Part shown: positions 3,747 through 61,207 of the stretch, piece by piece
How positions within the stretch are numbered: the stretch's first letter is position 1
Layout: each line of letters begins with the position of its first letter
Virus record (IMG/VR): IMGVR_UViG_3300002835_000070
Span: 38,229-102,228 of that record
DNA: 64,000 bases
Direction: 5' to 3' (one strand)
Source of the DNA: a virus
Translations under genes and position numbers: made by a program
Notes under the pieces: model-generated
What the model was told of the DNA's origin: nothing
Database searches by the model: none
The model's input: only the letters and a program-made list of their open reading frames with translations

Positions 3747-5975
3747 TTTAAAAATACTATGAAGTTATTTAATAAAACAATAGACAGACAATTATTCAAT
3801 CAATATTCACTTGGTAGTAACCTCTCTAAACAAGAGGTTGTTGTCAAGATATTCAATCCTATGGGGAATGGAAGCTGGTATATTTTAAATTCTGACCCCA
3901 ATGACCCTGATTATCTTTGGGCTATTGTAGATTTAGGATATGGTGCTGAAGTAGGTTCAGTAAGCCGTAGCGACCTTGAAACGTATAGAGGTCGATTTGG
4001 ATTAGGATTTGAGCGTGATTTAGGTTTTGACCCAATTAACGCTGAAGAACTTTATAACGGTTTGAGAGAGGGTAAATTTTACGCTGACGGTGGCAACATT
4101 GAAAGTTTCAGCGATAACCAACGTATGATTATGAATCAAAACGTTGAGGTAGAACATCATCACGAGGAATTGGAAGATATTTTAGAAGATAAAGTTCCTG
4201 TTCCTGCTTGGGTAGTTGCAAAAATGGAAACTGCAACGCAAAACCTTTCCGACATTACTCATTACCTTGACGGTAAAAAAGAGTTGATGGAGGAAGAAAA
4301 CGAAGAAGAGGACGAAGACGAGGAAGAGGACGAGGAAGAGGACGAAGACCAAGACGATATTAAAAATCAAAATGTTGTCGAACCAATAAACGTGTCTGCG
4401 GGAACTAAAGCAGAATTGACTAAAAAATTTACTGACGATGCTTTGGGTAATTTTAAAGGTTTCTTGAAAGGTATGGAGGGAGTTGACTTGCGTGAAGACT
4501 ACACGTTTGATTACAAGGACGAACAATACGAAGTTGAGCCAATTGTTAACTCTGATGAAAACGGTGTTTCAAATGCCGTGTTTAGCATTTTTGACGGAGA
4601 CGGAGAAGAAGTTGGGGAAGTTACTTATAGCCGTGACGGTGGAAAACAAAAGTTTACTGCTAATTCGGAATTTTTCGGTTGGAATAATGCAAAGTTTGAA
4701 GACGGTGGGTTTATGAATAATGTTTACGCTGACGGGGGAGAAATAAGTCTTTGGAAAGCAGAGCCAAATAACAAACCTGAAAAATTAAAAACTTTTAAAT
4801 CATTACGGGCTTATAATACTTATATGAATAAAAACCGTGAATTTTTTAGAGATGAACATTCTAAAAACGGAACAGGATTTTATGGTTTTGAAGCAGATGT
4901 AACTGAAAAAGAAGTTGAAAGCAGTATAGAAAATCTATATGATTCTAATAATAAATATGCTAACGGTGGATATTTTGACGGAACTATACCGAAAGTTTCT
5001 ACTTATATGAGTAATTATGCTAAAGGCGGAGAAGTTGCCAAAGCAGAAATTCTTGGTTTGAGTAAAAACATAATGGGAACTACTGATATTGAAATGAAAA
5101 TTTCAGGAATGAGAAAATCTCAAGACTTTAGTGTTTACCCAATTGGTAAAGATGATACAGACCAAATTATTACAATTCAATCTGAAACAAGAATTGGTAA
5201 AATAGATTTGTCAACAGGTCGTGGATTAATGAGCCAAAGTCATTCTAACGGTGCTTACTTTGTACATTTTCAAATGGACAATCTTACTAAATTTACTGTA
5301 AGCGAAAGCGACTTAGAAGAATTGAAAATGTACATTTTTAAAACTGCGGGTTCTAATGTTGGAAGTTCAATTGTAAAATCTGACAATTCAGGGGCTTCGG
5401 GCGTTTATGAAGACGGTGGTTCTGTAAAAAGAACAAGGCGAACAAAAAACCAAATAAGGAAAGACGAATACAATAAAGAAGTTGATTTATATAATTGGTA
5501 TATTGTAAATTTTTTAGAAAATAAAGTAGAATCAGGATTTGAATATAAAGAAGATGCTGTTGACTTACTTTCTGATTATGATGGAGATAAAAATTTTAAA
5601 GTAGTATCTAAAAAAACCTTAAAAACTTTAGGAATTGAAATACCTAATGAAAATTGGAAATATGCTGACGGTGGCTTTATGAATAATGTTTACGCTAAAG
5701 GCGGTAAAATTGATAACTCACATAATTATCGATTATTAGATAGATTACGTTCAGATAACGATTATTTTTTAGGTAATGGAAACAGGTCTGAAAAACATTT
5801 GTGGGCGGGTAATGTAGATGCTCAAATAAAAGAAATGAAGCGTTTGTGGAATAACTTACCTGAAGATGCAAAACCTGAATGGTTAAGTATGGATGATATT
5901 TTAGAATACGAACAAAAAATGAAAAAGCAATACGCTGACGGTGGCTTTATGAATAATGTTTATGCTGACGGTGGT
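2991..5975 (+). repeat. Dispersed ~42-bp linker repeat encoding (A/E)DGGFMNNVYA(K/D)GG, 4 copies
   Basis: Copies at about 2991-3032, 4698-4739, 5664-5705 and 5934-5975, with near-identical DNA across two genes. Confidence 0.9.
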
Positions 5976-7298
5976 AGAGTTAGTAATGAAGACTACGAAC
6001 AAAGACTTCAATATTTAAAAATGATGAAGAACAATGAACCTACTGATTTAGGTAAATACAGAATTGACAAAGAAATCAGAGAAATAAATACAATTTTAAA
6101 CCATAGAGGAAATCTAAAAAATTCTTACGCCAAAGGCGGAAGTTTAGAAGATAAACTGACTAAACTTGAAAACAAAAAATCTGAATTAGAATCAAAATTA
6201 TTTGAAGCTAAATTAAAAGAATATAAAGTTATAGAAAATATGGGTTGGGGTGCAGGTATGAGAAGAAGTAAGGTTAGTATCAGCACAAGACAAACAGATT
6301 CTTTAAAAGAAAGAATTAAACTTGTGGAAAAGGAAATAGAGCAAACCAAAATAGATATTTTGCCAAAAAAACCTAAATACATTCTTAAAGCAGACATCAA
6401 AACCGTTACACTTAAACGTAATGGCAAGGAGGTTACTTACAGTGGTGCTGATGTTCTAAATGGTGCTAACGTACTTGCGAAAGGCGGAGATTTGACTTCA
6501 AAAGCAAATTACATTCCAAAACGTGATGTAGTTTCTGTTGAGTTGAAAGATGGAACTACCGTTAAGCCTGTAAATGGGTATTGGGTTAAGAAAGGTGCTG
6601 AACCAATTGGAGGACAACCAACGCCTACTTCTTCAGGAAAATCAGAACCTAAAATTAGTACAACTGAAATTAGAAAAGATGCAAGAGGTAATTGGAGAGC
6701 GGAAAACACAGTAGATGATTTTAACGGTTACGATTGGAGAATATCTACCGTTAAAACTTATAGTGGTAATTTAGTTTCTTCTGCTCAAGGAGGTAAAACA
6801 GAGCCGACAGGAACAAAAGGTTATAGTATTTTTAAATATACTATGTATCAAGACCCAAATCATACTTTAGAAGTTTCTAAACCAAAAAGATTGACTGATA
6901 AGGTAGTTTCTGAACAACACGAAAAAGCATTAGCCAAGTTCAAAAAGTTTATGGAAACAGGAATGTTCAAAGGCGGAGGTAAAATCTCCAACTTTGATAA
7001 ACTTTCTGATAAAGTAGCAAAAGAATACGAGGGAATACCTGTTAAGAGCAAATACCAAGAGCAATATGGTAGATACTATTCTAAAGAAGAAGCACAGGAA
7101 GTTGGCGATAAAGTTGCGGGAAAAGTAAAGGCTATGCAATCTGCTAAAAAGATGTCAGGCGGTAGTACAGACGGTAAAAAATCAAATAGCGGAGCAGAAA
7201 CCCTAAAAAAAGCAAATGATTTAGCTAAAAAAATCCGTATGGATGGAGAGAGTTGGAACAATGCTAAAAAAAGAGCCTTTGCCCAATTAAAAAAATAG
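3759..7298 (+). CDS. Giant polyvalent protein: N-terminal DUF2958-like domain, LPD11-like domain, acidic tract, about 13 YADGG/YAKGG linkers
   Basis: KIFNPMGNGSWY...EVGSVSRSDL...FERDLGF resembles DUF2958. YRLLDRLRSDNDYFLGNGNRSEKHLWAGNVDAQIKEMKRLWNNLPEDAKPEWL resembles LPD11. Confidence 0.8.
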   Translation: MKLFNKTIDRQLFNQYSLGSNLSKQEVVVKIFNPMGNGSWYILNSDPNDPDYLWAIVDLGYGAEVGSVSRSDLETYRGRFGLGFERDLGFDPINAEELYNGLREGKFYADGGNIESFSDNQRMIMNQNVEVEHHHEELEDILEDKVPVPAWVVAKMETATQNLSDITHYLDGKKELMEEENEEEDEDEEEDEEEDEDQDDIKNQNVVEPINVSAGTKAELTKKFTDDALGNFKGFLKGMEGVDLREDYTFDYKDEQYEVEPIVNSDENGVSNAVFSIFDGDGEEVGEVTYSRDGGKQKFTANSEFFGWNNAKFEDGGFMNNVYADGGEISLWKAEPNNKPEKLKTFKSLRAYNTYMNKNREFFRDEHSKNGTGFYGFEADVTEKEVESSIENLYDSNNKYANGGYFDGTIPKVSTYMSNYAKGGEVAKAEILGLSKNIMGTTDIEMKISGMRKSQDFSVYPIGKDDTDQIITIQSETRIGKIDLSTGRGLMSQSHSNGAYFVHFQMDNLTKFTVSESDLEELKMYIFKTAGSNVGSSIVKSDNSGASGVYEDGGSVKRTRRTKNQIRKDEYNKEVDLYNWYIVNFLENKVESGFEYKEDAVDLLSDYDGDKNFKVVSKKTLKTLGIEIPNENWKYADGGFMNNVYAKGGKIDNSHNYRLLDRLRSDNDYFLGNGNRSEKHLWAGNVDAQIKEMKRLWNNLPEDAKPEWLSMDDILEYEQKMKKQYADGGFMNNVYADGGRVSNEDYEQRLQYLKMMKNNEPTDLGKYRIDKEIREINTILNHRGNLKNSYAKGGSLEDKLTKLENKKSELESKLFEAKLKEYKVIENMGWGAGMRRSKVSISTRQTDSLKERIKLVEKEIEQTKIDILPKKPKYILKADIKTVTLKRNGKEVTYSGADVLNGANVLAKGGDLTSKANYIPKRDVVSVELKDGTTVKPVNGYWVKKGAEPIGGQPTPTSSGKSEPKISTTEIRKDARGNWRAENTVDDFNGYDWRISTVKTYSGNLVSSAQGGKTEPTGTKGYSIFKYTMYQDPNHTLEVSKPKRLTDKVVSEQHEKALAKFKKFMETGMFKGGGKISNFDKLSDKVAKEYEGIPVKSKYQEQYGRYYSKEEAQEVGDKVAGKVKAMQSAKKMSGGSTDGKKSNSGAETLKKANDLAKKIRMDGESWNNAKKRAFAQLKK

Positions 7299-7427
7299 TA
7301 CGAAAACAGATGTAATATGTCCGACACCAAGCGGACAAAAAATAATAGCAGAAAGCCTGTTAGAAACATAAAAAAAGACAATTATTTTAAAAACAAGGCA
7401 TTAATTACTTGTTTATCAAAATTTTAT

Positions 7428-7435
7428 TATATTTG
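7428..7435 (+). promoter_or_regulatory. Bacteroidota sigma70 -7 box (TATATTTG)
   Basis: Matches TAnnTTTG in an intergenic gap about 30 nt before the ATG at 7468. Confidence 0.55.
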
Positions 7436-7467
7436 TAGATTAAATTAACTTTATTAAGTACAATACT

Positions 7468-8034
7468 ATGGAAACAATTAATGGATTATTAAGAGCGTTG
7501 GATAACAAAGTACCCGCTTCAATGGCTAAAAGAATAGACGGTTTGCAAAAACTGAATGTGAAATTAGAAACCGCAAGAAGCGAACACGATGCTAACCCGA
7601 CAGAGGCTTCTCAAGATGCGTTAGACGAGATTATAGAATTTATCAAAGACACCCAAGAGGATGTTCAAGAAGATTTAGAAACTCTTGTAGAGCAAAAAAG
7701 AAGTGCTAATTTAAAAGCACAGGGAGAAGAGAAAAAAAGAAGAGAACAAGAGGCTTTAGCGAAAAGAGGAGAACAAGAGGCGTTAGCCAAAAGAAGAAAA
7801 CAACAAGAGGAATTAGCAAATAGAAGAGCAAGTGAAAAAGCCCAAAAAGATGCTGAAGAATTGAGAGAAAAAGAAGATTTAGAGAAAAAAGAATCGGAAG
7901 AACAAGAATTAAAAACAGATGACGAAACTAAAACTGAAAAAAAATCAGGAATTGGTTGGGGAAGTTTGCTTTTAGGCGGTATTCTACTTGTAGCAACAGG
8001 TGGGGCAATAAAGTATTTCGGAAATAAAAAATAA
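7468..8034 (+). CDS. Coiled-coil protein with C-terminal membrane anchor
   Basis: E/K/R-rich helices; GIGWGSLLLGGILLVATGGAIKYF tail. Confidence 0.8.
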   Translation: METINGLLRALDNKVPASMAKRIDGLQKLNVKLETARSEHDANPTEASQDALDEIIEFIKDTQEDVQEDLETLVEQKRSANLKAQGEEKKRREQEALAKRGEQEALAKRRKQQEELANRRASEKAQKDAEELREKEDLEKKESEEQELKTDDETKTEKKSGIGWGSLLLGGILLVATGGAIKYFGNKK

Positions 8035-8201
8035 TGAGCAAAGCGCAAAAAATTTTATTAGTAGTAGGCATTTTAGGTGTTGCTTTCGGAGGCTTTGTCT
8101 TGGCGAAGTATCTTACTCGTAATGTTAGAAAAATTCGAGGTGGAACAGTCACTTTTCAAAAGTTTGACACACCGCCAATAGAAGAACCTTTATCTGAATA
8201 A
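8034..8201 (+). CDS. 55-aa N-anchored membrane protein (not in ORF track)
   Basis: MSKAQKILLVVGILGVAFGGFVLAKYL...; start overlaps the upstream stop (TAATG). Confidence 0.7.
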   Translation: MSKAQKILLVVGILGVAFGGFVLAKYLTRNVRKIRGGTVTFQKFDTPPIEEPLSE

Positions 8202-8203
8202 TT

Positions 8204-8902
8204 ATGGGAAAGTACACGACAGTTGCGATTAAAGTGCCTGATATTAATAGAAGTTTTGCACAATCAAATTATAAATACTCTAACCCCGATGTTATAAGAG
8301 TTAACAATTTACTTATAGATGAAATCAATAAGTCATTTGGAAGCTATGTTACAAAGTGGGGAATTGAATTTGAAATTGATGATTCAATAATTATAGGTTT
8401 TATTGCTACCGAAAGTGGCGGTATTAATTCTCCTCCGAATAAATATGATGCGACAGGTCTTATGCAGATGACTCCAAACACAGTTTGGGAAATTTTGGCA
8501 AAATGGCAAGTTATGGTCAATTCCCCGCTATCTACTAAAGCAAAATCTTTTTTCAATAAAGCGATTCCGTCAAGTAAAAATTTCAACGCTAATGTACTTC
8601 CGAGTTCGGCAGTAAAAAGCGAAATACGCAAAGCATTACAAAATAATCCTGAATTCAATATAGCAATTGGTACTGCTAATTTAAGATGGCTTTTAGAAGC
8701 ATTTAAAGAGGGCAACGTTGCGAGTATGAATAAAGTTATGGTTTCCTACAATGCGGGTTACTATGCTATGAGAAATAAGGTAAAAGGTGCTTTAACAACT
8801 CAACAATTAATCAATAATAAATCTATTCCTTTGGAAAGCAGAGGTTATTTATTAAAAATGTTAGGCGTAAACGGTTTTTTAGACCTATGGTTTAAAAAGT
8901 AA
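8204..8902 (+). CDS. Lytic transglycosylase (SLT/lysozyme-like)
   Basis: IATESGG (catalytic Glu), ATGLMQ and SYNAG motifs. Confidence 0.85.
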   Translation: MGKYTTVAIKVPDINRSFAQSNYKYSNPDVIRVNNLLIDEINKSFGSYVTKWGIEFEIDDSIIIGFIATESGGINSPPNKYDATGLMQMTPNTVWEILAKWQVMVNSPLSTKAKSFFNKAIPSSKNFNANVLPSSAVKSEIRKALQNNPEFNIAIGTANLRWLLEAFKEGNVASMNKVMVSYNAGYYAMRNKVKGALTTQQLINNKSIPLESRGYLLKMLGVNGFLDLWFKK

Positions 8903-8986
8903 TTATAAACAAAAACAAGAAACAAAACAACAACCTAATTAAGTAATGATAAATTTAAAAAATATAAACAATTAAATATTAAAATT

Positions 8987-9241
8987 ATGAAAAAAGGTTA
9001 TTTAGTAGGTGGTTTAGCGATTGTAGGTGCAATAGCATTATTTATGTATTTAAAACCAAAAAACAAAGCAAATTCAGAGGGTTTTTACGGGGCAAATGGT
9101 AAATTAACTACCAAAGGAGGTTCGACTTCAAAAGTTCAATTACAATGTAAAAGACCTAATGGAAGTTATTACTTACAACCATCAGGAGCAACTGCTTGTG
9201 TGTATGGTAGTGACACACCAATTCGTTACGTTGAAAATTAA
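8987..9241 (+). CDS. N-anchored small membrane protein, 'GGLA..GA.AL..LKPK..NSEGF' family
   Basis: Close paralogue of 25638; TM, then EGFYGANG, then a two-Cys domain. Confidence 0.8.
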   Translation: MKKGYLVGGLAIVGAIALFMYLKPKNKANSEGFYGANGKLTTKGGSTSKVQLQCKRPNGSYYLQPSGATACVYGSDTPIRYVEN

Positions 9242-9252
9242 AAACAAAAAAA

Positions 9253-9384
9253 ATGGAAAAGAAATATATCGTAGGAGGTTTAGCCGTAGTAGGTGCTTTA
9301 GCATTATTAGCTTGGTATTTTACACCAAAGAAAAGTTCAGATAAATTCTTGAACGCAACAGGTGGTTGCGGTTGTGGGGCTTAA
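9253..9384 (+). CDS. 43-aa membrane protein of the same family, ending FLNATGGCGCGA (not in ORF track)
   Basis: MEKKYIVGGLAVVGALALLAWYFTPKKSSDKFLNATGGCGCGA. Confidence 0.75.
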   Translation: MEKKYIVGGLAVVGALALLAWYFTPKKSSDKFLNATGGCGCGA

Positions 9385-9386
9385 TA

Positions 9387-9680
9387 ATGGCTTATAAAAT
9401 TTTACCATATTCAAAAGCACAGGCGGATAAGTTGGGGGTTGAAATAAAGCCCTCAACAAACTCTGTTAAAAAAATTGATATTTTTAAAAATGGTAAAAAA
9501 ATTGCTACAATAGGGGCTTCGGGTATGAATGATTACCCGACCTATTTGGAGAAAGAAAAAAAAGGGTATTTCCCGAAAGGATATGCTAAAGAAAGACGTA
9601 GATTGTATAAGCAACGCCACGAAAAAGACCGTCATAAAACAGGGTCGAATGGTTGGTATGCAGATAAAATATTGTGGTAA
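9387..9680 (+). CDS. Small basic protein, DUF5754-like
   Basis: Likely true start MAYKILPY at 9387. GASGMNDY...RRRLYKQRH...GWYADKILW pattern resembles a family I recall from large DNA viruses. Confidence 0.5.
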   Translation: MAYKILPYSKAQADKLGVEIKPSTNSVKKIDIFKNGKKIATIGASGMNDYPTYLEKEKKGYFPKGYAKERRRLYKQRHEKDRHKTGSNGWYADKILW

Positions 9681-14667: not shown

Positions 14668-15315
14668 ATGGAATTTAACGATTTAACATACGGAAATCCA
14701 ACTGTTGAGGATTTAGTTTACATTCAGGGAAATGGATTGACAGACGACCTTTTTGAAACATTAAAGTCCAAGTTGTCATATCCAAAAAATGATTCTGAAT
14801 TAGTTAAGGACGAACTTAACGAAATTGTAGATGCTTTGGCAACAATGGCTCAACCTGAAAATCAAAACTATTTAAAAAGATACAAGTCTTACGATAGGAA
14901 TTTAATTCAGTCGCTTTCAGCAATATTTAAACAAAGAAATATTGATGTTGAACAATTGTGTAAAGACGTAGTTATGGATATGCAAAATTTGATTTATAAA
15001 TTAAAATTTTACTATCAAAGACCACGACCAAAGCAAATTGCGCAATATTACAAGTTGAAATTATTTCCATACAAAAGTTTTTCAGCACACACGCCATCGT
15101 TCCCTTGCGGACATTGCGTACAAGCAATTGTAATGCTTAACGTAATAGGAAATAAAAACCCTACTGAATATCCGTTCTGTAAAGAACTAATTGAAGATAT
15201 TGCATACAGTAGAGTATATTTAGGACATCATTTTCCAAGCGATAATGACGGAGCAAGAGAAATTGGTAAAGCGATTTTAAAACACCCTGAATTTGCGAAA
15301 AAATACGGCATATAA
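14668..15315 (+). CDS. PAP2/haloperoxidase-superfamily phosphatase
   Basis: KFYYQRPRP, PSFPCGH and SRVYLGHHFPSD are the three PAP2 motifs. Confidence 0.9.
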   Translation: MEFNDLTYGNPTVEDLVYIQGNGLTDDLFETLKSKLSYPKNDSELVKDELNEIVDALATMAQPENQNYLKRYKSYDRNLIQSLSAIFKQRNIDVEQLCKDVVMDMQNLIYKLKFYYQRPRPKQIAQYYKLKLFPYKSFSAHTPSFPCGHCVQAIVMLNVIGNKNPTEYPFCKELIEDIAYSRVYLGHHFPSDNDGAREIGKAILKHPEFAKKYGI

Positions 15316-15363
15316 ATTTATTTGTACGCCTTAATAAAAACCAAGACTAAACTAACAACAATT

Positions 15364-15750
15364 ATGAAACACGAGGAATATGAACTACAAAAATCAGTAG
15401 CCCGTTATTTATCTTACCAATATCCAGATGTTGAATATATGTCGGATACTATTGCCTCTGTAAAACTTACCGAAAGACAGGCAGGGCGAAACAAACTTGT
15501 TCAAAAGAACAATTTTAAATGTCCTGATATTTTGATATTTGAGCCACGCAATAACTTTTGTGGCTTGTTTATAGAACTTAAAATTGAAACCCCTTTCAAG
15601 AAAGACGGTACAATTAAGGCTTCTCAAAAAGACCATTTGAAACTACAACACGAATGTTTACTTAAACTAACCTCAAAAGGTTATAAGGCGGTATTTTCTT
15701 GGAATTTTGATATGACAAAGCAAATTATTGACGAATACTTAAATCAATAG
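15364..15750 (+). CDS. VRR-NUC-like PD-(D/E)xK nuclease
   Basis: EYELQ...CPDILI...GLFIELK...Q; likely start MKHEE at 15364. Confidence 0.8.
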   Translation: MKHEEYELQKSVARYLSYQYPDVEYMSDTIASVKLTERQAGRNKLVQKNNFKCPDILIFEPRNNFCGLFIELKIETPFKKDGTIKASQKDHLKLQHECLLKLTSKGYKAVFSWNFDMTKQIIDEYLNQ

Positions 15751-15752
15751 CT

Positions 15753-16184
15753 ATGACTCAAGAAACTAACGATGTATCAAAGGTATTAAAGGAGTTGGAT
15801 AAAACCATTCAGGTAATAGGAACAGAAAAGCTAATTGAGATTCTAAAATACTCACGGCTTAATATGGCAAACATAAACGAGGAACAAATTAACAGGTCTT
15901 TAGAAATAATTAAAGTTGTTTGTGATGAATTTAATATTTCATTAGTTGAGTTCTTCGACAGAAAGCGTAAAACCAATAGAAGAACTGCAATAGGCATTTG
16001 CGCCTATCTAATTCAAAAAGAATTAAATCTTGACAATTCAAACATATCATACATTTTGAAAAAACCTGACGAAGTAATATCTTTGTACAAACAAGAAATA
16101 ATCAGATTGAACTCAAACCATCCTCAAGACATACAGGTATTGGAAAAAATAAAAATAATAAGTGAAACTATAAAATTACAATAA
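15753..16184 (+). CDS. Protein with DnaA domain-IV-like helical DNA-binding fold
   Basis: IIKVVCDEFNIS...KRK..RR...CAYL. Confidence 0.55.
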   Translation: MTQETNDVSKVLKELDKTIQVIGTEKLIEILKYSRLNMANINEEQINRSLEIIKVVCDEFNISLVEFFDRKRKTNRRTAIGICAYLIQKELNLDNSNISYILKKPDEVISLYKQEIIRLNSNHPQDIQVLEKIKIISETIKLQ

Positions 16185-16187
16185 AAA

Positions 16188-17330
16188 ATGAGCAACCAAG
16201 AAAAACAAATAGAAGAAGTTTATGCAGAAGTAGTGCAAACAATTGATGATGATTTCTCTCCGTTAGATGCCCCCGTAAAACAGAGGGCATATACACAACA
16301 CAAATTAGACGACAGTCAAGTAATGCAGGATTTGGAAGAACCAAGTTTTGAAAGACCAAGTTTTGCAGACCTTGATGGAAGTGCCGAAGAGGAATCATCA
16401 GAACCTGAAAGACCTTTTAACCCGTCTTATAATGAATTAGACGGTAAAGAAAAGACAATGGGGGCTGAAATGATGGCTGAAATGACTTTGGACATTTACG
16501 AAAAGGGTTGTTTCTATATGGGTAAAATACCCGAAATCAGTGAGCAAAAATTAGATAAGTTAATTGCAGAGGGGGAAATAGACCCGTCAATCCAACTTCA
16601 AACAGAAGCGGGTTCAATGCCTATTAAAGATTTTGCAGTAGAGTTCAACGACAGTATTAAAGATGCTTTTGCGGTAACTGACGAATTTAAAGAAAAAGTA
16701 AAACCACCATTAATCCGTGTTTTCAAAAAACGTGGAATTGGAATGACCGATGAGCAATTATTGGCTTACTACTTTATTTCAGATTTAGGAGCAAAAGGCG
16801 CACAAGCGTTTATGTTGCGTAAAACGGCTAATAGCATTTTGGATTCTTTGAGAGAAAACACTTTGGCAATTAGAGAAAATCAATTAAGAACAGAAAGACC
16901 AACTCCTCCACCTGCGCCACAACAATCGTATCAGGAAAGAACTGATTGGGATACTTCGTCAAAACCGAGAAACGTAAATACTACCGATTCCGAACCAATA
17001 GATAGAGAGGACTTTGACTATTCCGAAAACATAGCAGAAGTTATACAAAAACCTGTTAAGAAAGAAAAACTTGAAAAACCTGTAAGAAGAAAGCCTCAAA
17101 CTAATTTAGAAGAGCAATTAGCTTATTTTGAGCCTGAAGAACAAGAAGTTTTTAGTAACTTAAAAGATAAAGACGGTTTTACAGATAGATTTCAAGACGT
17201 AGCAGGTATGCCTCAATATGGCGACCCTGTAATGATGTCAGAATTAGAGAAGTTGAGTAAGAAAGACCCAACTAAACCTGTTAGAAAAGTAAGAACAACT
17301 GCTTTAAGAAAACCAAGAAATAAAAAATAA
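16188..17330 (+). CDS. Acidic protein with disordered C-half; unknown function, upstream of the ATPase
   Basis: 380-aa ORF; composition only. Confidence 0.75.
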   Translation: MSNQEKQIEEVYAEVVQTIDDDFSPLDAPVKQRAYTQHKLDDSQVMQDLEEPSFERPSFADLDGSAEEESSEPERPFNPSYNELDGKEKTMGAEMMAEMTLDIYEKGCFYMGKIPEISEQKLDKLIAEGEIDPSIQLQTEAGSMPIKDFAVEFNDSIKDAFAVTDEFKEKVKPPLIRVFKKRGIGMTDEQLLAYYFISDLGAKGAQAFMLRKTANSILDSLRENTLAIRENQLRTERPTPPPAPQQSYQERTDWDTSSKPRNVNTTDSEPIDREDFDYSENIAEVIQKPVKKEKLEKPVRRKPQTNLEEQLAYFEPEEQEVFSNLKDKDGFTDRFQDVAGMPQYGDPVMMSELEKLSKKDPTKPVRKVRTTALRKPRNKK

Positions 17331-17332
17331 TT

Positions 17333-17449
17333 ATGGCAAGTAATATAGCGAATAATAAAAACAACAATAACAATCCTATATGGGTTGTTATGTTGTTATT
17401 CGTAATTTGGCTTATATTAATTTTTTTAAGACTTAAACAAACTTTATAA
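17333..17449 (+). CDS. 38-aa membrane protein immediately before the ATPase (not in ORF track)
   Basis: MASNIANNKNNNNNPIWVVMLLFVIWLILIFLRLKQTL. Confidence 0.65.
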   Translation: MASNIANNKNNNNNPIWVVMLLFVIWLILIFLRLKQTL

Positions 17450-17450
17450 T

Positions 17451-18275
17451 ATGGAAGAAAGAGAACCGAAATTATTAGTTGCAGTTGGACGTAAAGGGTG
17501 CGGTAAAACTTTTTCAACAAGAAAAATGCTTACAAGTTATGTTCAAGGCAATATTTCAAAAGGTATTGCCCCAAGAAGAGTTTTAATATTTGATGTAAAT
17601 GATGAGTTTGAGGACATAAAAGCATTGGCTTTAAAAGATGTGGCTTTATTTTCTATGCACCCAAAAATAGAGATAAGAAGAATTAGACCATTCAACAAGG
17701 ACGGAAGACCTATGGGTATTAATGAAATGCAAGAAACATTATTTAAAATAGTTAATAATTTTAGAGGAGGAATGCTTTTGTTAGAGGATTTAAACGGTTA
17801 CGTTGGGGATTATATCCCACAGGATTTAATAGGTAAAATAGTAAGAGCAAGACACGCAGATTTGGACATAATTACGCATTTTCAATCAATAGGAAGAATA
17901 TCGCCTAAAATTTGGCAGAACGTCAACGCTATTCGTTTTCACAAAAATACAGATTCAGTTTTAAAACATTCCAAGAAATTTGATAATTTTTCAGAAATGT
18001 TTTTATTAGTGGAGGCTTATGTAAATTCCGAGTATCATTTAGGAAATGAAAGAATACAAGTTTGGGTTGATACAGAAAACGAAAAAATTAAAATACCAAA
18101 AGAAAATATAGCTAAATTTGAAAAAATTGTAGAATTGTACTTAATGGAAAACCATAAAAGAATACTTTCCCCTTTATTAAATAAAAATATTTTCTTTAAA
18201 AATAATAAACCATTAACAATGCAAGAAGTTTTAAAAATAAAAAAAGCAGAAATGTTAAAATATTATTTAGATTAA
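17451..18275 (+). CDS. A32/P9-like (FtsK-HerA superfamily) genome-packaging ATPase
   Basis: N-terminal Walker A GRKGCGKT, VLIFD, Walker B MLLLED, then RARHADLDIITHFQ (RH plus Q sensor); 274 aa with no nuclease domain. Confidence 0.75.
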   Translation: MEEREPKLLVAVGRKGCGKTFSTRKMLTSYVQGNISKGIAPRRVLIFDVNDEFEDIKALALKDVALFSMHPKIEIRRIRPFNKDGRPMGINEMQETLFKIVNNFRGGMLLLEDLNGYVGDYIPQDLIGKIVRARHADLDIITHFQSIGRISPKIWQNVNAIRFHKNTDSVLKHSKKFDNFSEMFLLVEAYVNSEYHLGNERIQVWVDTENEKIKIPKENIAKFEKIVELYLMENHKRILSPLLNKNIFFKNNKPLTMQEVLKIKKAEMLKYYLD

Positions 18276-18289
18276 AAATAAATATTTTT

Positions 18290-18883
18290 TTATAAATATT
18301 TATTTGTAATTCCGTTTTGTTTTTCAAAATCAACTCTTTTTTGGTAAGCCTCCTCTTCAGTTTTAAACATTCCGAACCGAACAGATTTTCCATTAAACTG
18401 AATTGAACTTCTCCATTTATTATCTCTTTTAAAATATGAAACGCCAATATATTTACTTGTGCAGTTTGAATTTTTAACCCTATGACAGCTATTTTCCCTA
18501 TTGTTTACCCATTCTAAATTTGAAATTTTATTATTAAGTTTATTTCCGTCAATATGGTTTACTTGCGGATTATTTTTTGGGTTATTAATAAACGAAATAG
18601 CAATCAGCCTATGTATTTTTTTTGTAATTTCAAGTGCATTTTTACAAAAACCTACTTCCCAATAACCCCTTTTACTTATATGTGGTTTTTTTATTAATAC
18701 CTTATAAATGCACTTTTTCCCACTTATAATAAGTGTTTTCTCTAAAGATTTTACTCTTCCAAGATTCGATATTTGATAATACCCCTCGTAATCAGGAACA
18801 TCTTTCCATTCTTCAACACGAGTAACACCATTATCATCTATATAGACAATATCTTCTAAACTTAAATCTTTGTAGTAATCCAT
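18290..18883 (-). mobile_element. NUMOD4-HNH-AP2 homing endonuclease
   Basis: EEWKDVPDYEGYYQISNLGRVKS (NUMOD4); HRL...VNHIDGNKLNN...LEW (HNH); SKYIGVS...W...F.TEEEA (AP2); antisense to its neighbours. Confidence 0.9.
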
Positions 18884-19134: not shown

Positions 19135-19377
19135 ATGAAAAAAAGTAGATTTAGTAAGTTATGTCTAAAAGACCTTTCACGGGGTGTGATAATGACAGTA
19201 GGTACAACTTTTGTAGGGTTGTGTAGCACAAGTGTAGTTTCGGGAATATTTCCTGCGGTTGCAGATTTTATTAATATGGGTAAGGTAGGTTTGCTTTCAG
19301 GAGCAGTTTATTTAGTTAAAAACTTCCTTACAAACTCAAAAGGCGAATTTTTAAAACAAGAAGAAGATGTCGTATAG
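19135..19377 (+). CDS. Putative holin (2 TM)
   Basis: 80 aa, two hydrophobic segments, overlaps the endolysin start. Confidence 0.6.
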   Translation: MKKSRFSKLCLKDLSRGVIMTVGTTFVGLCSTSVVSGIFPAVADFINMGKVGLLSGAVYLVKNFLTNSKGEFLKQEEDVV

Positions 19378-19894
19378 TTATTTAAGCAAAGAGGCTTCGC
19401 CTCAAATTTTAGTTCAAGCAAAATCCCTTTTAGGAACTAAAGAAATTGTAGGCGTTATTCATAATAAAACTATTATGAGTTGGGCTAAAGGTTTAGGTCT
19501 TGAAAAAATATATACCTCTGACGAAATCGCTTGGTGCGGTTTATTTATGTCAGAAGTTTGTAAAAAAGCGGGGGTAGAAACCAACTTAACCCCTAAAGAT
19601 TCATTGTGGGCTTTAAATTGGAGTAAATTTGGAACAAAGCAATCAGTAGCGATGCTTGGGGATATTCTTACTTTTAAAAGAAACGGAGGCGGACACGTTG
19701 GTATTTATGTTGGGGAAGACGATACTTGCTATCATATTCTTGGGGGAAACCAATCTAATATGGTTTGCGTTACTCGAATTGAAAAATCAAGAGTTAACAG
19801 TATTAGACGTACAAGTTGGAAGTCAAAACAACCAAGTAATGTAAGGGTAATAAAACTCGAAAGTAACGGTATAATTTCTAAAGACGAGAGTTAA
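19367..19894 (+). CDS. TIGR02594-like NlpC/P60/CHAP peptidoglycan hydrolase (endolysin)
   Basis: DEIAWCGLF, GDI..F.R.GGGHVG, LGGNQSN. Confidence 0.85.
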   Translation: MSYSYLSKEASPQILVQAKSLLGTKEIVGVIHNKTIMSWAKGLGLEKIYTSDEIAWCGLFMSEVCKKAGVETNLTPKDSLWALNWSKFGTKQSVAMLGDILTFKRNGGGHVGIYVGEDDTCYHILGGNQSNMVCVTRIEKSRVNSIRRTSWKSKQPSNVRVIKLESNGIISKDES

Positions 19895-19895
19895 T

Positions 19896-20285
19896 ATGGA
19901 AAATTTAAAAAATGTTTTATCAAACAAACTAAACCTGCTTATACTTTTGGTAGCAATTATTTTTTGCTTCCAAGTTTTTAGTTTATTTAGTAACGGTAAT
20001 GAAACCCAAAAAATCAACTACATCAAAGATGAAATATCTGATTTAAAAACAGGGGTAAAGGTTATTTACGATTCATACGAAAGAATGGATAAAAAAATTG
20101 AAACTTTCAATACGAAAATAAATAACATTGACAATCAAGTAAAAATAAATAATACTAAAATAGATAATCTAAAAAAAGATGAAAAAACTAAAATTGATAA
20201 TTTCAAGTCTTATGATGCTCGTATGTATGAGCGTTATTTCACAGAACGCTATGCAAAAAAGCCAAGTACCGCTACAATCAAATAA
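19896..20285 (+). CDS. N-anchored coiled-coil protein (spanin-like)
   Basis: TM plus heptad repeats; follows the endolysin. Confidence 0.5.
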   Translation: MENLKNVLSNKLNLLILLVAIIFCFQVFSLFSNGNETQKINYIKDEISDLKTGVKVIYDSYERMDKKIETFNTKINNIDNQVKINNTKIDNLKKDEKTKIDNFKSYDARMYERYFTERYAKKPSTATIK

Positions 20286-20616
20286 AGTAGTAATAGATAC
20301 TTCCATAGCAAGGAAAATAGCAACAGACCTTGTAAGAGGAGATTTCTGTAAAGCAGAAATAAAGTTAGTCAGAAGCAATTTAGACTTAACGAAGAAACAA
20401 GTAGTACTAAAAGACAGTATCATAAAGACTTTAGGAACTCAAAAGGAAGAACTTAATTTGATTATTTCAAAAAAAGATGAAATGTTTTCCAAACAAGAGG
20501 AAATATCGAATAGTTATAAAAAAGAATTGTCAAAACAAAAGGGAACAACGTTCCTTTATAAGTTACTATCCCTGTTAGGTGTTGTTTCTACCTCACTACT
20601 CATAATAAAACCATAA
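20179..20616 (+). CDS. Signal peptide/coiled-coil protein overlapping the previous gene (spanin-like partner)
   Basis: Overlap of about 100 nt; hydrophobic at both ends. Confidence 0.5.
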   Translation: MKKLKLIISSLMMLVCMSVISQNAMQKSQVPLQSNKVVIDTSIARKIATDLVRGDFCKAEIKLVRSNLDLTKKQVVLKDSIIKTLGTQKEELNLIISKKDEMFSKQEEISNSYKKELSKQKGTTFLYKLLSLLGVVSTSLLIIKP

Positions 20617-20619
20617 CAC

Positions 20620-20649
20620 AAAGCGCACCAATACGGTGCGTTTTTTTTT
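20620..20649 (+). terminator. Intrinsic terminator after the lysis cassette
   Basis: GCGCACC-AATAC-GGTGCGT followed by a T run. Confidence 0.85.
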
Positions 20650-20721
20650 GCTCATTACCTTTACGTTGAGAATAATTAAATAGTTTGTGAATTATTATTT
20701 AATGATAAAGTAGGCGTTAAA

Positions 20722-20753
20722 TAAATTTGATGTGCTATTATGCTATAAATTTG
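20722..20753 (+). promoter_or_regulatory. Two TAAATTTG -7-type boxes upstream of the capsid operon
   Basis: TAAATTTG at about 20722 and 20746 in an intergenic region. Confidence 0.45.
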
Positions 20754-20818
20754 GCTTTGATATTATTTCTGTAAATTAATATCATTAAAAATAAGTTTAA
20801 CAAAAAAATCATTCTGAA

Positions 20819-20950
20819 ATGAAAAACGAAATTGTTCCTTTATTGAAAAGCGTTGCCGTTGTAGTTGTAGGTGTGTTAGTTGCTAACTATGTTCAAAAAA
20901 CATTGTTGACTAAAGCAGTTGTCGCTCCCGCTTCTTCTTCAGCAGTATAA
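20819..20950 (+). CDS. 43-aa membrane protein directly upstream of the candidate capsid gene (not in ORF track)
   Basis: MKNEIVPLLKSVAVVVVGVLVANYVQKTLLTKAVVAPASSSAV. Confidence 0.7.
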   Translation: MKNEIVPLLKSVAVVVVGVLVANYVQKTLLTKAVVAPASSSAV

Positions 20951-21004
20951 TTAGGTGTCAAAACCGAGTAAAAAAATTAGTAAATAATATTAAATTAAAT
21001 TAAA

Positions 21005-21700
21005 ATGTCAAACGTAAGAAGATATTTAAGCAATGCACGTCAAAGTGCAATGGAATCTTTCTCAAATGCTGACGGATTCATCGACCAAGACCTGTCATTC
21101 ACAGGAGATGATTTCTTTAGAGCAGACGGAGGAATGGGGCAACAAGATATTCAAACATCTCAACCCTACATTATCAACGTTACTTCTACATCAGGAGCAG
21201 CGATTGCTAACTTTGCTATATTAGGTTCATACCAATATATCAATAACACAGGATTCGTTAACGGTTCGTTAACAATCGGTCCAGTGACTGTGAGTTCAGG
21301 TATTCCTGACATCACTTACCAAGAAATGTTATACCAATTTATGAATAATCCTTATTCTGTTGGTTTAACTTACATCCAATCGGCTACTACTAACCAAGTT
21401 CTACAAACTTTGTCAGTAAACACGAGAGATGCGAATGGTAACTTGGCACAAAAAACTTTAGTGCCTACAATTGACCCATATCAGCAACAAACGAATATCG
21501 TTGCAATGAAGTATGCTTACCGTATTGATGGTTTCACAAAAATCATCATTGCTCAAATTTTAGCAACTGCTACATTGTCATTATACTTCTATCCTGCTGA
21601 TAACATCAACCTTGCAAGAGCATTGGGTGGTCAACCTGTAAGCAGACAATTCGGAACACCTCCTGTAACTAATGGACAAACCATCAAGTTAAGAGCGTAA
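21005..21700 (+). CDS. Candidate major capsid protein (beta-rich, possibly single jelly-roll) with acidic N-terminal leader
   Basis: Enriched in TTC/ATC/AAC/TAC codons relative to neighbours; own terminator; alternating strand-like pattern; no TM; paralogue at 59058. Confidence 0.6.
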   Translation: MSNVRRYLSNARQSAMESFSNADGFIDQDLSFTGDDFFRADGGMGQQDIQTSQPYIINVTSTSGAAIANFAILGSYQYINNTGFVNGSLTIGPVTVSSGIPDITYQEMLYQFMNNPYSVGLTYIQSATTNQVLQTLSVNTRDANGNLAQKTLVPTIDPYQQQTNIVAMKYAYRIDGFTKIIIAQILATATLSLYFYPADNINLARALGGQPVSRQFGTPPVTNGQTIKLRA

Positions 21701-21738
21701 TTATCAGTGATGATATAACGAATTAATGTATAATTTAG

Positions 21739-21778
21739 AAAAAGAGCAAGTTTGATTTATTTCTACTTGCTCTTTTTT
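21739..21778 (+). terminator. Intrinsic terminator after the capsid candidate
   Basis: AAAAGAGCAAGT...ACTTGCTCTTTTTT. Confidence 0.8.
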
Positions 21779-26948: not shown

Positions 26949-27734
26949 ATGAATTTAAGATTAGATACAAGGTTTGAAGAAATGTGCTTGGTAGTAAAAG
27001 TAGCAGTTACAATGCCTACTAAAGTCAGAATTAAAATTTTTGATGAACAAAAACCTAAAATTGTTTTTACTGATAGGTATAAAACAGTTAATTCAGATTA
27101 CACTTTCTTTGTCCGTATGCCAATCACGTCTAAAAGCGTTATAATTTCAGTGTATGATGATAGAAGAGGAAATTCGCCACAAAGCGAAGATAAAAACATC
27201 ACGGTTGTTTCAGTTGATAAAACACCGTTACAAAAAAGGATTGATGTAGTCGATATACATAATCCAACAATTGCTTATTTTATAGATTTTGCGCAAAGAT
27301 TTTGTTTTAACGCACCTTATTTAGAAGCAAACAAATCGTATCAGTCAGACAACGGAAATATTATGATAGAGTATTTACCGACTATTACAGATTCAAAAGG
27401 AAAAGAACTTACAACACCTGCGAGAATATCAAGAATGACAGGTCGTATTCAAGTATCTAAAAGGCAATTTGATACTTATACTATACCTATGAGATTTGCG
27501 ATTCTTTGCCACGAATTTAGCCATTTCTACGTTAACGAAGATATGCACGATGAGAGCGAAGCAGACTTGAATGGGTTATTGATTTATTTAGGGCTTGGTT
27601 ATCCAAGAATTGAAGCGTGTGAAGCGTTTTTAGAAGTTTTTGAACACTACCCAAGCCAAGAGAATAAAGTTCGTTACGATAAGATTAAAAACTTTATCGA
27701 CAACTTTGAAAAAGACAATATAGTATTTAGGTAA
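26949..27734 (+). CDS. Zincin-type metallopeptidase (candidate maturation protease)
   Basis: AILCHEFSH (HExxH) followed by ESEAD (third ligand Glu); no TM. Confidence 0.75.
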   Translation: MNLRLDTRFEEMCLVVKVAVTMPTKVRIKIFDEQKPKIVFTDRYKTVNSDYTFFVRMPITSKSVIISVYDDRRGNSPQSEDKNITVVSVDKTPLQKRIDVVDIHNPTIAYFIDFAQRFCFNAPYLEANKSYQSDNGNIMIEYLPTITDSKGKELTTPARISRMTGRIQVSKRQFDTYTIPMRFAILCHEFSHFYVNEDMHDESEADLNGLLIYLGLGYPRIEACEAFLEVFEHYPSQENKVRYDKIKNFIDNFEKDNIVFR

Positions 27735-53132: not shown

Positions 53133-53951
53133 ATGAAAAAGATTTTTTTCAATTCCTCGCTCCCACGTTCGGGGTCAACTTTGATTTCTAATTTGATTGC
53201 TCAAAACCCTGAATTTTATGCAACGCCTACTTCGGGTCTTTCAGATTTAGTTTTGAGTGCTAAAAACTCTTACGCACATTCCCAAGCAATTTTGTCGCAA
53301 GACAAGGAAGCAATGGAAAAAGCATTTTTAGGATTTTGCCGTGCAGGTATGCAAGGCTTTTTCAATAACCTTACCCCAAAAGAATTTATCGTTGATAAAA
53401 GCAGAGATTGGGGTATTCACTACAACTTATTGAATTTACTATATCCTGAACCAAAGATAATTTGTATGGTTAGAGATGTTCGAGCCGTATATGCTTCTAT
53501 GGAAAAGAACTTTAGGAAAAATCCGCATAAAGAAAGTCATATCCAAAATGCACCACAATTAATTGGAACTACATTAGACAAGAGAATTAATATATGGGCT
53601 GACGGAGTACCTGTTGGTATTGCGTTAGACCGTTTGAAAGATGTTATCCAACAAGGTTTAGATAAAAAAATATTATTTATTCGCTATGAAGACTTAATGG
53701 CGAACCCTGAAAACGAAATGAAGCGTTTGTATGAGTATTTAGGACAACCTTACTACGACAAACACGATTTTGAAAACATTACCCAACATACTCACGAAAA
53801 CGATGCTATTCACGGTATCTATGGCGACCATCAGTTAAGACCTAAATTCGAGAGATTACCTGACGATTTTTACGATGTTTTAGGTTACGAACTTTGCCAA
53901 TCCATAAAAAACACTTATGCTTGGTTCTACAAATATTTTGCGTACCTATAA
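53133..53951 (+). CDS. Sulfotransferase
   Basis: SLPRSGSTL (5'-PSB loop), DKSR, MVRDVRAVYAS (3'-PB), IRYEDL..NP. Confidence 0.9.
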   Translation: MKKIFFNSSLPRSGSTLISNLIAQNPEFYATPTSGLSDLVLSAKNSYAHSQAILSQDKEAMEKAFLGFCRAGMQGFFNNLTPKEFIVDKSRDWGIHYNLLNLLYPEPKIICMVRDVRAVYASMEKNFRKNPHKESHIQNAPQLIGTTLDKRINIWADGVPVGIALDRLKDVIQQGLDKKILFIRYEDLMANPENEMKRLYEYLGQPYYDKHDFENITQHTHENDAIHGIYGDHQLRPKFERLPDDFYDVLGYELCQSIKNTYAWFYKYFAYL

Positions 53952-59980: not shown

Positions 59981-61207
59981 ATGGGCTTACCAATTAACGA
60001 TACTTTAAATGTTAGAGTTATAAATAACACTAATTTGCCACAAAGGGTAAATATATTGGGCGGTAGCCAAGACCCTTTAAGTGTGCCTCCAAATAAAATC
60101 TATGAATGGGATTTATCGGGAGAAACATTTTTCGGCAGTGTAAGTGCTAAAATTGTTATTTCAAACACATCAAGCCCTACACCTGTAACTTATACTGTTC
60201 AAGTAACACAATACAATATACAAGGAGTTGTTTCTGCGTTAAACACGCTAAAAAAAGGTTTTTTCCAATTAAGCGGAACTATAATTTACGTTTCTAATGA
60301 CTATTACATATATGGTGCTTTATCGGTGTCAGGAACTACAATTTTAGGAACTACAAGTAATAATCCTGTTGGGATTGTATATGACAGTATTGGCAATGTA
60401 TATGTTGCAAATGGTTCGGATGCGTCTGTTACTAAAATTACGCCAAGTGGGGTTTCAAGCGTTTTTTGTACATTTCCATTATTAGATTATGCTCAATCTA
60501 TCACGATTGATAGTAGTGACAACCTATATGTTGCGACTCTTACAACTTGGAACTTATTTCAAATTGACCCATTAGGTAATATTATTAATATATTTAGTTC
60601 TGCCCCACAACCTGCTCAAAATGCAATTACAATTGACAATTTAGGAAATATTTATAATGTCGGAAATACAAACAATGTTTATAAAAACGACCCTTTATTT
60701 GGAACGACTGCTTACGGGAATTTACCAATAGGTCTTGGTGGCTTTACATCTTTAGTTGTCGATTCTGTTGGAAATGTTTTTGTTGCTTGTCCTAATGCCA
60801 ATCAAGTTGCTAAAGTAACACCATCAGGAGTTACAACTGTTTTTACAATTTTTAATTTACCCCCAACTCAACCTTATGGACTTGCAATAGATAGTTCAGA
60901 TAATATTTATGTTTCAAATCCTACATTAGAAAGTGTTTATAAAGTAACGCCATTGGGTATAAGAACGCTTTATGGAAGTACAGGGGCAGGAAATAACCCT
61001 AACTACATAGCTATTGATAGTTTGGAAAATATTTACACAGTAAATACGAATGGAACTATAAGTAAAATATTAGTAGGTGGCGGAACTACATTATTAGCAG
61101 ATTTAAGTGTGTACGGTGGTACGCCATTCGCAATAACAGTAGATAGTTCGTTTAATGTTTATGTAACAGATACTACAAACAATGTCGTTTACCTGATAGT
61201 ACAATAA
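59981..61207 (+). CDS. NHL-like beta-propeller protein (candidate receptor-binding spike)
   Basis: About seven P.GI..DS.GNVYV repeats after an N-terminal beta domain. Confidence 0.8.
   Translation: MGLPINDTLNVRVINNTNLPQRVNILGGSQDPLSVPPNKIYEWDLSGETFFGSVSAKIVISNTSSPTPVTYTVQVTQYNIQGVVSALNTLKKGFFQLSGTIIYVSNDYYIYGALSVSGTTILGTTSNNPVGIVYDSIGNVYVANGSDASVTKITPSGVSSVFCTFPLLDYAQSITIDSSDNLYVATLTTWNLFQIDPLGNIINIFSSAPQPAQNAITIDNLGNIYNVGNTNNVYKNDPLFGTTAYGNLPIGLGGFTSLVVDSVGNVFVACPNANQVAKVTPSGVTTVFTIFNLPPTQPYGLAIDSSDNIYVSNPTLESVYKVTPLGIRTLYGSTGAGNNPNYIAIDSLENIYTVNTNGTISKILVGGGTTLLADLSVYGGTPFAITVDSSFNVYVTDTTNNVVYLIVQ

Follow-up and report, generated by a model that had tools for sequence, protein, structure and literature searches.

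A two-gene unit encoding a candidate jelly-roll coat protein and a small membrane protein in an uncultured aquatic virus

Introduction

Which protein could build the shell of a large virus in whose sampled DNA no terminase, portal or HK97-type capsid gene is found? The question is raised by a 64,000-nucleotide stretch (bases 38229–102228; hereafter the window) of a single virus record of 102,228 bp, IMG/VR IMGVR_UViG_3300002835_000070. The window contains a two-gene unit that encodes a 43-residue single-pass membrane protein followed by a 231-residue protein (Table 1). An initial annotation, made from the nucleotide sequence alone, had proposed that these are a major membrane protein and a major capsid protein (MCP) of the single jelly-roll (SJR) type, respectively, both strongly expressed.

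Through in silico analysis of the unit, its neighbourhood and related loci, the 231-residue product has been assessed as the major coat, or shell, protein of the virus. This is the best reading of the data, and we give it an even chance of being right. It is preferred because of five features: (i) the expression signals of the gene; (ii) the extreme conservation of the protein; (iii) terminal arms that are unique to it; (iv) a fixed place among membrane-protein genes; (v) the lack of any other capsid candidate. No description of this virus clade has been found in the literature.

Family, fold and conservation of the coat candidate

The coat candidate belongs to a large family: metagenomes yield 1451 clusters of it at 90% identity and 555 at 50% identity, almost all with proteins of 215–260 residues. 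Pfam, PHROGs and NCBIfam contain no match for either gene of the unit or for most of the neighbouring genes. The family profile retrieved nothing below E 0.7 from all PDB sequences, and ESM Atlas gave no usable match for the coat candidate. A tblastn search of 50,697 phage records with the coat candidate and two products of nearby genes, a P-loop ATPase and an HExxH protein, likewise returned no match.

A structural model was built with AlphaFold2 (AF2), using 77 diverse family members as the alignment. The model reaches a predicted local distance difference test (pLDDT) value of 87 and a predicted template modelling (TM) score of 0.77, rising to a pLDDT of 94–98 in the core. The core is modelled as a single jelly roll of the eight-stranded type, in the form of a two-sheet sandwich with predicted strands at residues 55–61, 67–73, 88–98, 117–126, 136–141, 147–152, 165–174, 178–185 and 190–201, a helix (residues 105–114) inserted between the early strands, and a short conserved C-terminal extension. 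The initial annotation had described the part behind the N-terminal arm as strand-like and had suggested a jelly roll; the model agrees on both points, being neither helical nor of the HK97 type, and a fold other than a jelly roll, which would have spoken against the proposal, was not obtained.

Fold searches matched jelly-roll-type proteins only, many virus coat and penton proteins among them, and all alignments cover residues 49–211. In the PDB, Foldseek identified the small subunit of cowpea mosaic virus (E 8.5e-4, TM score 0.35–0.40), followed by TNF/C1q heads and CBM16/CBM32 modules; all these matches are equally weak.

The genomic context of the relatives was taken from IMG/VR and GTDB loci, which were located with a 12-sequence alignment; locus searches with two distant family members found no viral contigs. 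Across 16 related loci, the coat candidate is the most conserved of the 19 genes compared in a 16-kb neighbourhood, with 96–64% identity. The HExxH protein is the second most conserved (92–52%), the ATPase shows 62–47% identity, and the downstream membrane proteins are less conserved than the ATPase.

The gene of the coat candidate also has a distinct codon usage. Codons ending in C make up 33 of its 58 two-fold NNY codons, a share of 0.57 against 0.29 genome-wide (Fisher p 7e-6), which places the gene fifth among 132 genes and first among those of more than 150 codons. The C-ending bias reported initially is thus borne out, and the gene looks highly expressed. None of its four paralogues in this genome shows such a bias.

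The N-terminal arm and its recurring motif

The core is preceded by an arm that opens with a conserved helix at residues 2–15 and continues in the AF2 model as a low-confidence acidic stretch up to about residue 49 (pLDDT 48–60 over residues 11–40). The isoelectric point is 4.3 for residues 1–42 as against 8.8 for the rest of the protein, and throughout the family Asp and Glu account for 16% of the arms and 5% of the cores. The acidic N-terminal part with its motifs FSNADG, LSFTG and FFRADGG is therefore present as first described, and two of the three motifs are conserved family-wide, well above the shuffled expectation. Family arms are 40–65 residues long and variable in sequence; nonetheless, at least 90% of the 77 diverse members have A40. 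The pattern hydrophobic-x(1-2)-A-x-G occurs in 62 of 77 family arms (15.7 ± 3.5 in shuffled arms), and hydrophobic-x-N-[AVMFLI]-x-G in 35 of 77 (2.7 ± 1.8 in shuffled arms); these counts come from related rows and so are not probabilities, although the contrast is large.

The motif is not confined to the arm. In the proteome, [FYWLMI]-A-x-G-G is found 30 times against an expected 4.3 ± 2.0, and 28 of these occurrences fall in three giant proteins of 2267, 1179 and 1681 residues (15, 10 and 3, respectively), encoded in a region at record coordinates 23919–45526, which reaches window position 7298. There the motifs resemble linkers or cleavage sites set regularly between modules. Look-alikes are also seen in neighbouring membrane proteins (FYGANG, FLNATGG, FFNAGG, YLNMTG, LLNANGG). 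A short motif common to floppy segments of unrelated proteins suggests one reader, a single viral factor that would most simply be a protease, and the arm motif, hydrophobic-x-(N)-A-x-G(G), could be its cleavage site. A candidate for this role is the soluble HExxH protein, for which no family match was found.

Organization and expression signals of the two-gene unit

Both open reading frames (ORFs) named in the initial annotation are present, the first with one hydrophobic helix, and the terminators described on both sides are well supported. The upstream hairpin has a folding free energy of -14.2 kcal/mol (z -5.0) and the downstream hairpin one of -18.2 kcal/mol (z -5.2); in each case none of 200 shuffled sequences folds as well. 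The 54-nt intergenic spacer contains no stable hairpin (z -0.5), and since it lies between the two terminators, the unit is read as bicistronic, with both genes on one transcript. The upstream terminator closes a lysis-type operon located 5' of the unit and so insulates it. A strong hairpin followed by Ts stands just 3' of the coat-candidate gene in 9 of 17 relative loci scanned; the sequences differ, which argues that the terminator is kept for its function.

The promoter boxes of the initial annotation fare less uniformly. The 80 nt upstream of the unit are conserved among relatives, but the sigma70-like match (TTGATA-17-TATCAT at 20757–20785, score 10/12) is of a kind that arises at chance frequency in AT-rich DNA, with 40 matches found and 38.4 expected. 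In an alignment of 11 loci, TCTG and CATTCTG are invariant and a TGATATTATTTCTGTAAAT...ATCATT block is conserved. The element TAAGTTTA at 20792–20799 resembles the -7 box of Bacteroidota, which has the consensus TAnnTTTG. The invariant CATTCTG leader (20810–20816) lies just 5' of the ATG, and the exact leader is unique in the window. Neither the leader nor the promoter-like motifs are repeated elsewhere in the window, and with this single occurrence they were rejected as a general late-promoter signature. A Shine-Dalgarno sequence was found at neither gene of the unit.

The arrangement of the unit is itself conserved. In 29 of 30 relative loci inspected, an ORF of 35–45 residues with a single transmembrane (TM) helix lies about 55 nt 5' of the coat candidate; the remaining locus has a repeat-expanded ORF in its place. 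In IMG/VR contigs the same order is kept down to 43% identity: small TM gene, spacer of about 55 nt, coat candidate, and two genes for C-terminally anchored proteins of about 130 and about 200 residues. Judged by co-transcription, the 43-residue product may be the major membrane protein; co-transcription and conserved position together suggest a partner that would connect capsid and membrane.

Table 1. Features of the two-gene unit and of related genes, in window coordinates
Feature	Position	Strand	Evidence
274-aa P-loop ATPase, candidate packaging ATPase	17451..18275	+	Walker A GRKGCGKT, Walker B LLLED; 2.7 kb upstream
Upstream intrinsic terminator	20620..20654	+	hairpin 20620-20644, ten-pair stem with 5 GC pairs, then T-run
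Conserved upstream regulatory region	20741..20818	+	alignment of 11 loci; sigma70-like match, TAAGTTTA, CATTCTG leader
First gene of the unit, for a 43-aa single-pass membrane protein	20819..20950	+	ORF; one hydrophobic helix, about residues 8-27
231-aa jelly-roll-like protein, candidate major coat protein	21005..21700	+	ORF, AF2 fold, conservation, codon bias
N-terminal arm of the 231-aa protein, aa 1-43	21005..21133	+	helix 2-15, acidic low-confidence linker, motifs FSNADG (19-24) and FFRADGG (37-43)
Beta-sandwich core of the 231-aa protein, aa 50-215	21152..21649	+	AF2 pLDDT 94-98
Downstream intrinsic terminator, end of the unit	21738..21778	+	fourteen-pair hairpin with U-tract
261-aa soluble HExxH protein, candidate protease for the arm motif	26949..27734	+	HEFSH at residue 188
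Short arm-less paralogue, 154 aa	59058..59522	+	hmmsearch with family profile, E 1.6e-16

Paralogues and alternative roles in the virion

A search with the family profile (hmmsearch) revealed four further family genes in this genome. The largest (record 17225–18418, E 2.7e-85) encodes a 397-residue protein in which two complete copies of the domain follow a hydrophobic N-terminal segment, and this fused form is conserved in about 45 clusters. Two arm-less paralogues of 174 and 154 residues lie inside a glycan-synthesis cluster. The short arm-less paralogue of Table 1 adjoins a gene (59981–61207) for a 408-residue beta-propeller protein with SBBP and NHL repeats. Four related genomes each keep two members of the family, one long with arms and one short without; long ordered terminal extensions are present on the 231-residue paralogue only. 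The short paralogue is possibly a vertex protein or a second shell protein, and together with the beta-propeller protein it may form a vertex or spike pair.

These paralogues bear on the alternative that deserves most attention, although we regard it as unlikely: the 231-residue protein would be an abundant virion component without forming the lattice, that is, a vertex (penton or turret), cement or decoration protein, part of an outer fibre layer, or a genome-associated protein. In that case the shell itself would be the product of another, unrecognised gene, such as the 380-residue gene beside the ATPase or the fused 397-residue paralogue. Both of these genes, however, have ordinary codon usage (ranks 31 and 41). 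In ESM Atlas the 380-residue neighbour matches only unnamed virus clusters. Vertex proteins are present in few copies, yet it is the 231-residue gene that combines the strongest expression signals with the strongest conservation, and the short arm-less paralogue beside the propeller gene fits a vertex role better.

A second alternative is improbable in our judgement. The protein could be a carbohydrate-binding, lectin-type jelly roll, displayed or secreted, for instance for adsorption to host glycans, and no component of the shell. It has, however, neither a signal peptide nor a membrane anchor, and its extreme conservation extends across the whole surface and is not limited to a binding pocket. 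Its gene is fixed in a structural block adjoining membrane-protein genes, and its terminal arms carry conserved motifs of the sort typical of lattice proteins. Carbohydrate-binding modules do not stand out among its uniformly weak fold matches.

Two further observations concern the family. In one relative, two tandem copies of the coat candidate (8001–9427 of that locus) are 83% identical and 23 nt apart. In addition, the virus encodes a glycan-modification set (two GT2, an RgpF-like protein, a DegT aminotransferase, GT1 and a sulfotransferase) at record positions 3947–9214 and 15114–16388 and at window positions 53133–53951, with two coat-domain paralogues among its genes; the virus may encode the glycosylation of its own virion proteins.

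Search for tailed-phage hallmark genes

Hallmark genes of tailed phages were sought in about 490 kb of the clade. Six-frame searches for terminase (PF03237, PF03354), portal (PF04860) and HK97 capsid (PF05065) families found none in the record, in three 84-kb relatives or in a 132-kb relative, contig C9, whereas identical searches recovered all three from an ordinary prophage on C29, another contig of the bin that holds C9. None of the tested ORFs of at least 245 residues matched a terminase, portal, HK97 capsid or tail family or has a PHROG or Pfam structural match. The double-jelly-roll families PF09018 (PRD1-type) and PF04451 (NCLDV-type, of nucleocytoplasmic large DNA viruses) are also absent from the contigs of the clade. 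A membrane helix is predicted in about 45 of 148 ORFs, and three large proteins (852–1451 residues) have no assignable function.

The candidate packaging ATPase matches DUF87/HerA (E 0.0017) and AAA_22 (E 6e-4) below the curated cut-offs, and these weak matches recur among its homologues. As a side observation, relatives with 80–96% identity in the coat candidate and neighbouring proteins show only 57–62% in the ATPase, and the ATPase allele found here may have been exchanged.

That the virus is a tailed phage with hallmark genes too diverged or on unsampled DNA, and the 231-residue protein a decoration or tail-tube-type protein, is the least probable of the alternatives: the contig has no terminal repeats and its relatives are longer, the three large unassigned proteins could be fibres or tail parts, and the automatic labels of neighbouring clusters are Uroviricota, but the terminase, the most easily detected phage gene, is missing throughout the clade DNA searched, the coat candidate, the ATPase and the HExxH protein are shared with no cultured phage, about one third of the genes encode membrane proteins, and the only packaging-type ATPase, with 274 residues, is too short for a large terminase.

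Source record, host and neighbouring genes

The record has a GC content of about 32%, nearly all of its genes lie on the plus strand, and no terminal repeats were found in its 102,228 bp. CheckV estimates its completeness at 100%. Nevertheless, the record is probably a fragment, because the collinear contig C9 extends beyond both of its ends: C9 contains about 45 kb of additional DNA, overhanging the RecT end by about 30 kb and the opposite end by at least 7–14 kb. This extra DNA is virus-like in composition (GC 0.31) and codes for a DNA-polymerase exonuclease subunit, an N6/N4 methylase, HNH/NUMOD4 genes and other early-type genes. Contigs of up to 158 kb occur.

Contig C9 has been binned in a 'Sediminibacterium' metagenome-assembled genome that also holds NCLDV-type capsid genes on three other contigs, besides a tailed prophage of the ordinary kind on one more (C12, C20, C25 and C29 being the contigs concerned, and C29 the control). 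Since the bin is chimeric, with giant-virus capsid genes on other contigs, it was rejected as a guide to the host. The idea that the 102-kb contig is part of the giant virus of that bin was rejected as well: within the bin, the coat-candidate family occurs on C9 only, and the viral DNA carries intrinsic terminators of bacterial type and genes for peptidoglycan hydrolases. Together with RecT, these two features support a bacterial host, which is probably a mesophilic freshwater bacterium.

Directly upstream of the unit, positions 19367–20616 encode three proteins: an NlpC/P60 hydrolase, an N-terminally anchored protein resembling a coiled coil, and one that combines a lipoprotein-like signal (LVC) with a C-terminal helix. 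This group looks like a lysis cassette with endolysin and spanin-type proteins, and it stops at the terminator by which the coat unit is insulated. A homing-endonuclease gene with NUMOD4, HNH and AP2 domains (18290–18883), located between this group and the ATPase gene, is the sole minus-strand gene of the block.

Proposed model and its weight

Taken as a whole, the unit would be a bicistronic operon that is expressed late and strongly, and the uncultured aquatic virus that carries it would infect bacteria, have a genome of 100 kb or more and do without tailed-phage machinery. The second gene of the unit would supply the main shell-building protein, whose SJR-type core (residues 50–215) stands between an acidic arm of about 50 residues and an extension conserved at the C-terminus. 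During assembly, a viral factor, most likely a protease and possibly the conserved HExxH protein encoded nearby, would read the arm motif and trim or dock the arm. The first gene would provide a single-pass membrane protein of about 40 residues in comparable amounts, since it is on the same transcript, and this small protein plausibly ties the protein shell to a lipid layer. Four elements of this model are inferred: that the protein builds the shell, that the virion contains a membrane, that the arm is cleaved, and that the shell protein and the small protein pair stoichiometrically.

The initial proposal of an MCP paired with a membrane protein thus stands in part. It agrees with the jelly-roll fold, the expression signals, the conservation, the gene layout and the lack of tailed-phage hallmarks. 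Several points weigh against it. The fused 397-residue paralogue (AF2 pLDDT 77) matches single jelly rolls only, its two-domain alignments deviate by a root-mean-square distance of 10–18 Å, and the fold search gave no double-jelly-roll capsomer geometry or match; the fused protein was therefore dropped as evidence for capsomer-like packing of two jelly rolls. The coat proteins of P23-77, SH1 and SPV1 were not among the best 50 VIA matches listed in either fold search of the coat candidate, which falls short of a negative. In the PDB the ATPase has only P-loop matches and is not demonstrably of the A32/P9 type, and it is unusual for the packaging ATPase to be less conserved than the coat protein. 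Finally, the record is probably incomplete, and unseen genes could alter the picture.

Should the 231-residue protein be the coat protein, a widespread aquatic clade would pack at least 100 kb of DNA in particles made of one small jelly-roll protein. Among the bacterial and archaeal viruses described so far, those that combine a jelly-roll coat with a membrane have genomes of roughly 10–45 kb; the size range of this virion type would be extended several-fold, and a coat-protein family without recognisable relatives would be added. The motif that the coat candidate has in common with membrane proteins and with the giant multi-enzyme proteins would represent a directly testable maturation code, and the single, tandem and fused copies offer a natural series for the origin of double jelly-roll capsid proteins.

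A bolder version goes further and is, in our view, doubtful: the protein would be the sole MCP of a globally abundant lineage, so far undescribed, whose members are bacterial viruses of 100–160 kb with a membrane and no tail, an SJR protein without detectable kinship to Helvetiavirae or Bamfordvirae, maturing by proteolysis at an A-x-G(G) code. If this were true, the code common to the coat candidate and the giant polyproteins would be a prokaryotic parallel to adenovirus and African swine fever virus (ASFV) maturation, and the single, tandem and fused copies would be stages of a single-to-double jelly-roll transition.

Comparison with known virus systems

The coat candidate differs clearly from two of the common capsid architectures. 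HK97-fold MCPs of Caudoviricetes are set apart by its all-beta sandwich and by the lack of portal and terminase genes in the contigs of the clade. The double jelly-roll MCPs of Bamfordvirae (PRD1 P3, PM2 P2, STIV B345, NCLDV capsid) comprise two jelly rolls per chain and pack as pseudo-hexameric trimers, whereas the protein described here has one domain. PRD1-type pentons (P31 of PR772 and PRD1, the PM2 P1 N-domain, STIV A223, the phiCjT23 vertex protein) are single jelly rolls of half its length (about 125 residues), the difference being due to the terminal arms, and they form vertex pentamers next to a double-jelly-roll hexon; moreover, a penton is a 60-copy protein, which does not fit the expression signals seen here, and the virus shows no double-jelly-roll hexon gene.

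The arm motif invites comparison with the cleavage sites of adenovirus, ASFV and poxvirus (hydrophobic-x-G-G/X, G-G/X, A-G/X), which are likewise short and end in glycine. In the present virus the motif is shared by the coat candidate, by membrane proteins and by the segments that separate the modules of the giant proteins. No adenain or Ulp1-type protease has been detected, the HExxH protein being the only candidate. In adenovirus, ASFV and poxvirus the major capsid protein itself is not the usual cleavage substrate.

The closest parallels are found in the Halopanivirales of the Helvetiavirae (P23-77 VP16/VP17, SH1 VP4/VP7, HCIV-1, HHIV-2). There, too, the coat-type protein is a small single beta-sandwich, its gene lies in one block with the gene of a small P-loop ATPase and those of numerous small membrane proteins, and tailed-phage genes are lacking. 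In the Halopanivirales the jelly-roll strands stand perpendicular (vertical) to the capsid surface, and the packaging ATPase of the module is of the FtsK/HerA type (A32/P9-like). A second, shorter paralogue is present in every genome examined in the clade described here. However, the Halopanivirales carry an adjacent pair of different SJR MCP genes whose products form heterodimeric capsomers, whereas a single main gene is present here, with the short paralogue 38 kb away, and the one tandem pair among the relatives consists of copies 83% identical to each other. The long acidic, motif-bearing N-terminal arm is a further feature of the 231-residue protein that sets it apart, and the genome, of at least 100 kb, exceeds those of the Halopanivirales (16–45 kb). 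Because the adjacent MCP pair is absent and no kinship is measurable, the coat candidate having no sequence match to their coat proteins and no structural match in the top 50, the coat candidate has not been counted among the MCPs of this order.

In the Portogloboviridae, the archaeal membrane-containing virus SPV1 builds its shell from one SJR gene (VP4), the arrangement that is proposed here as well; host domain, genome size and gene content are all different. In its working, the coat candidate appears to be most like the SJR coat proteins of membrane-containing viruses, represented by the Halopanivirales and the Portogloboviridae.
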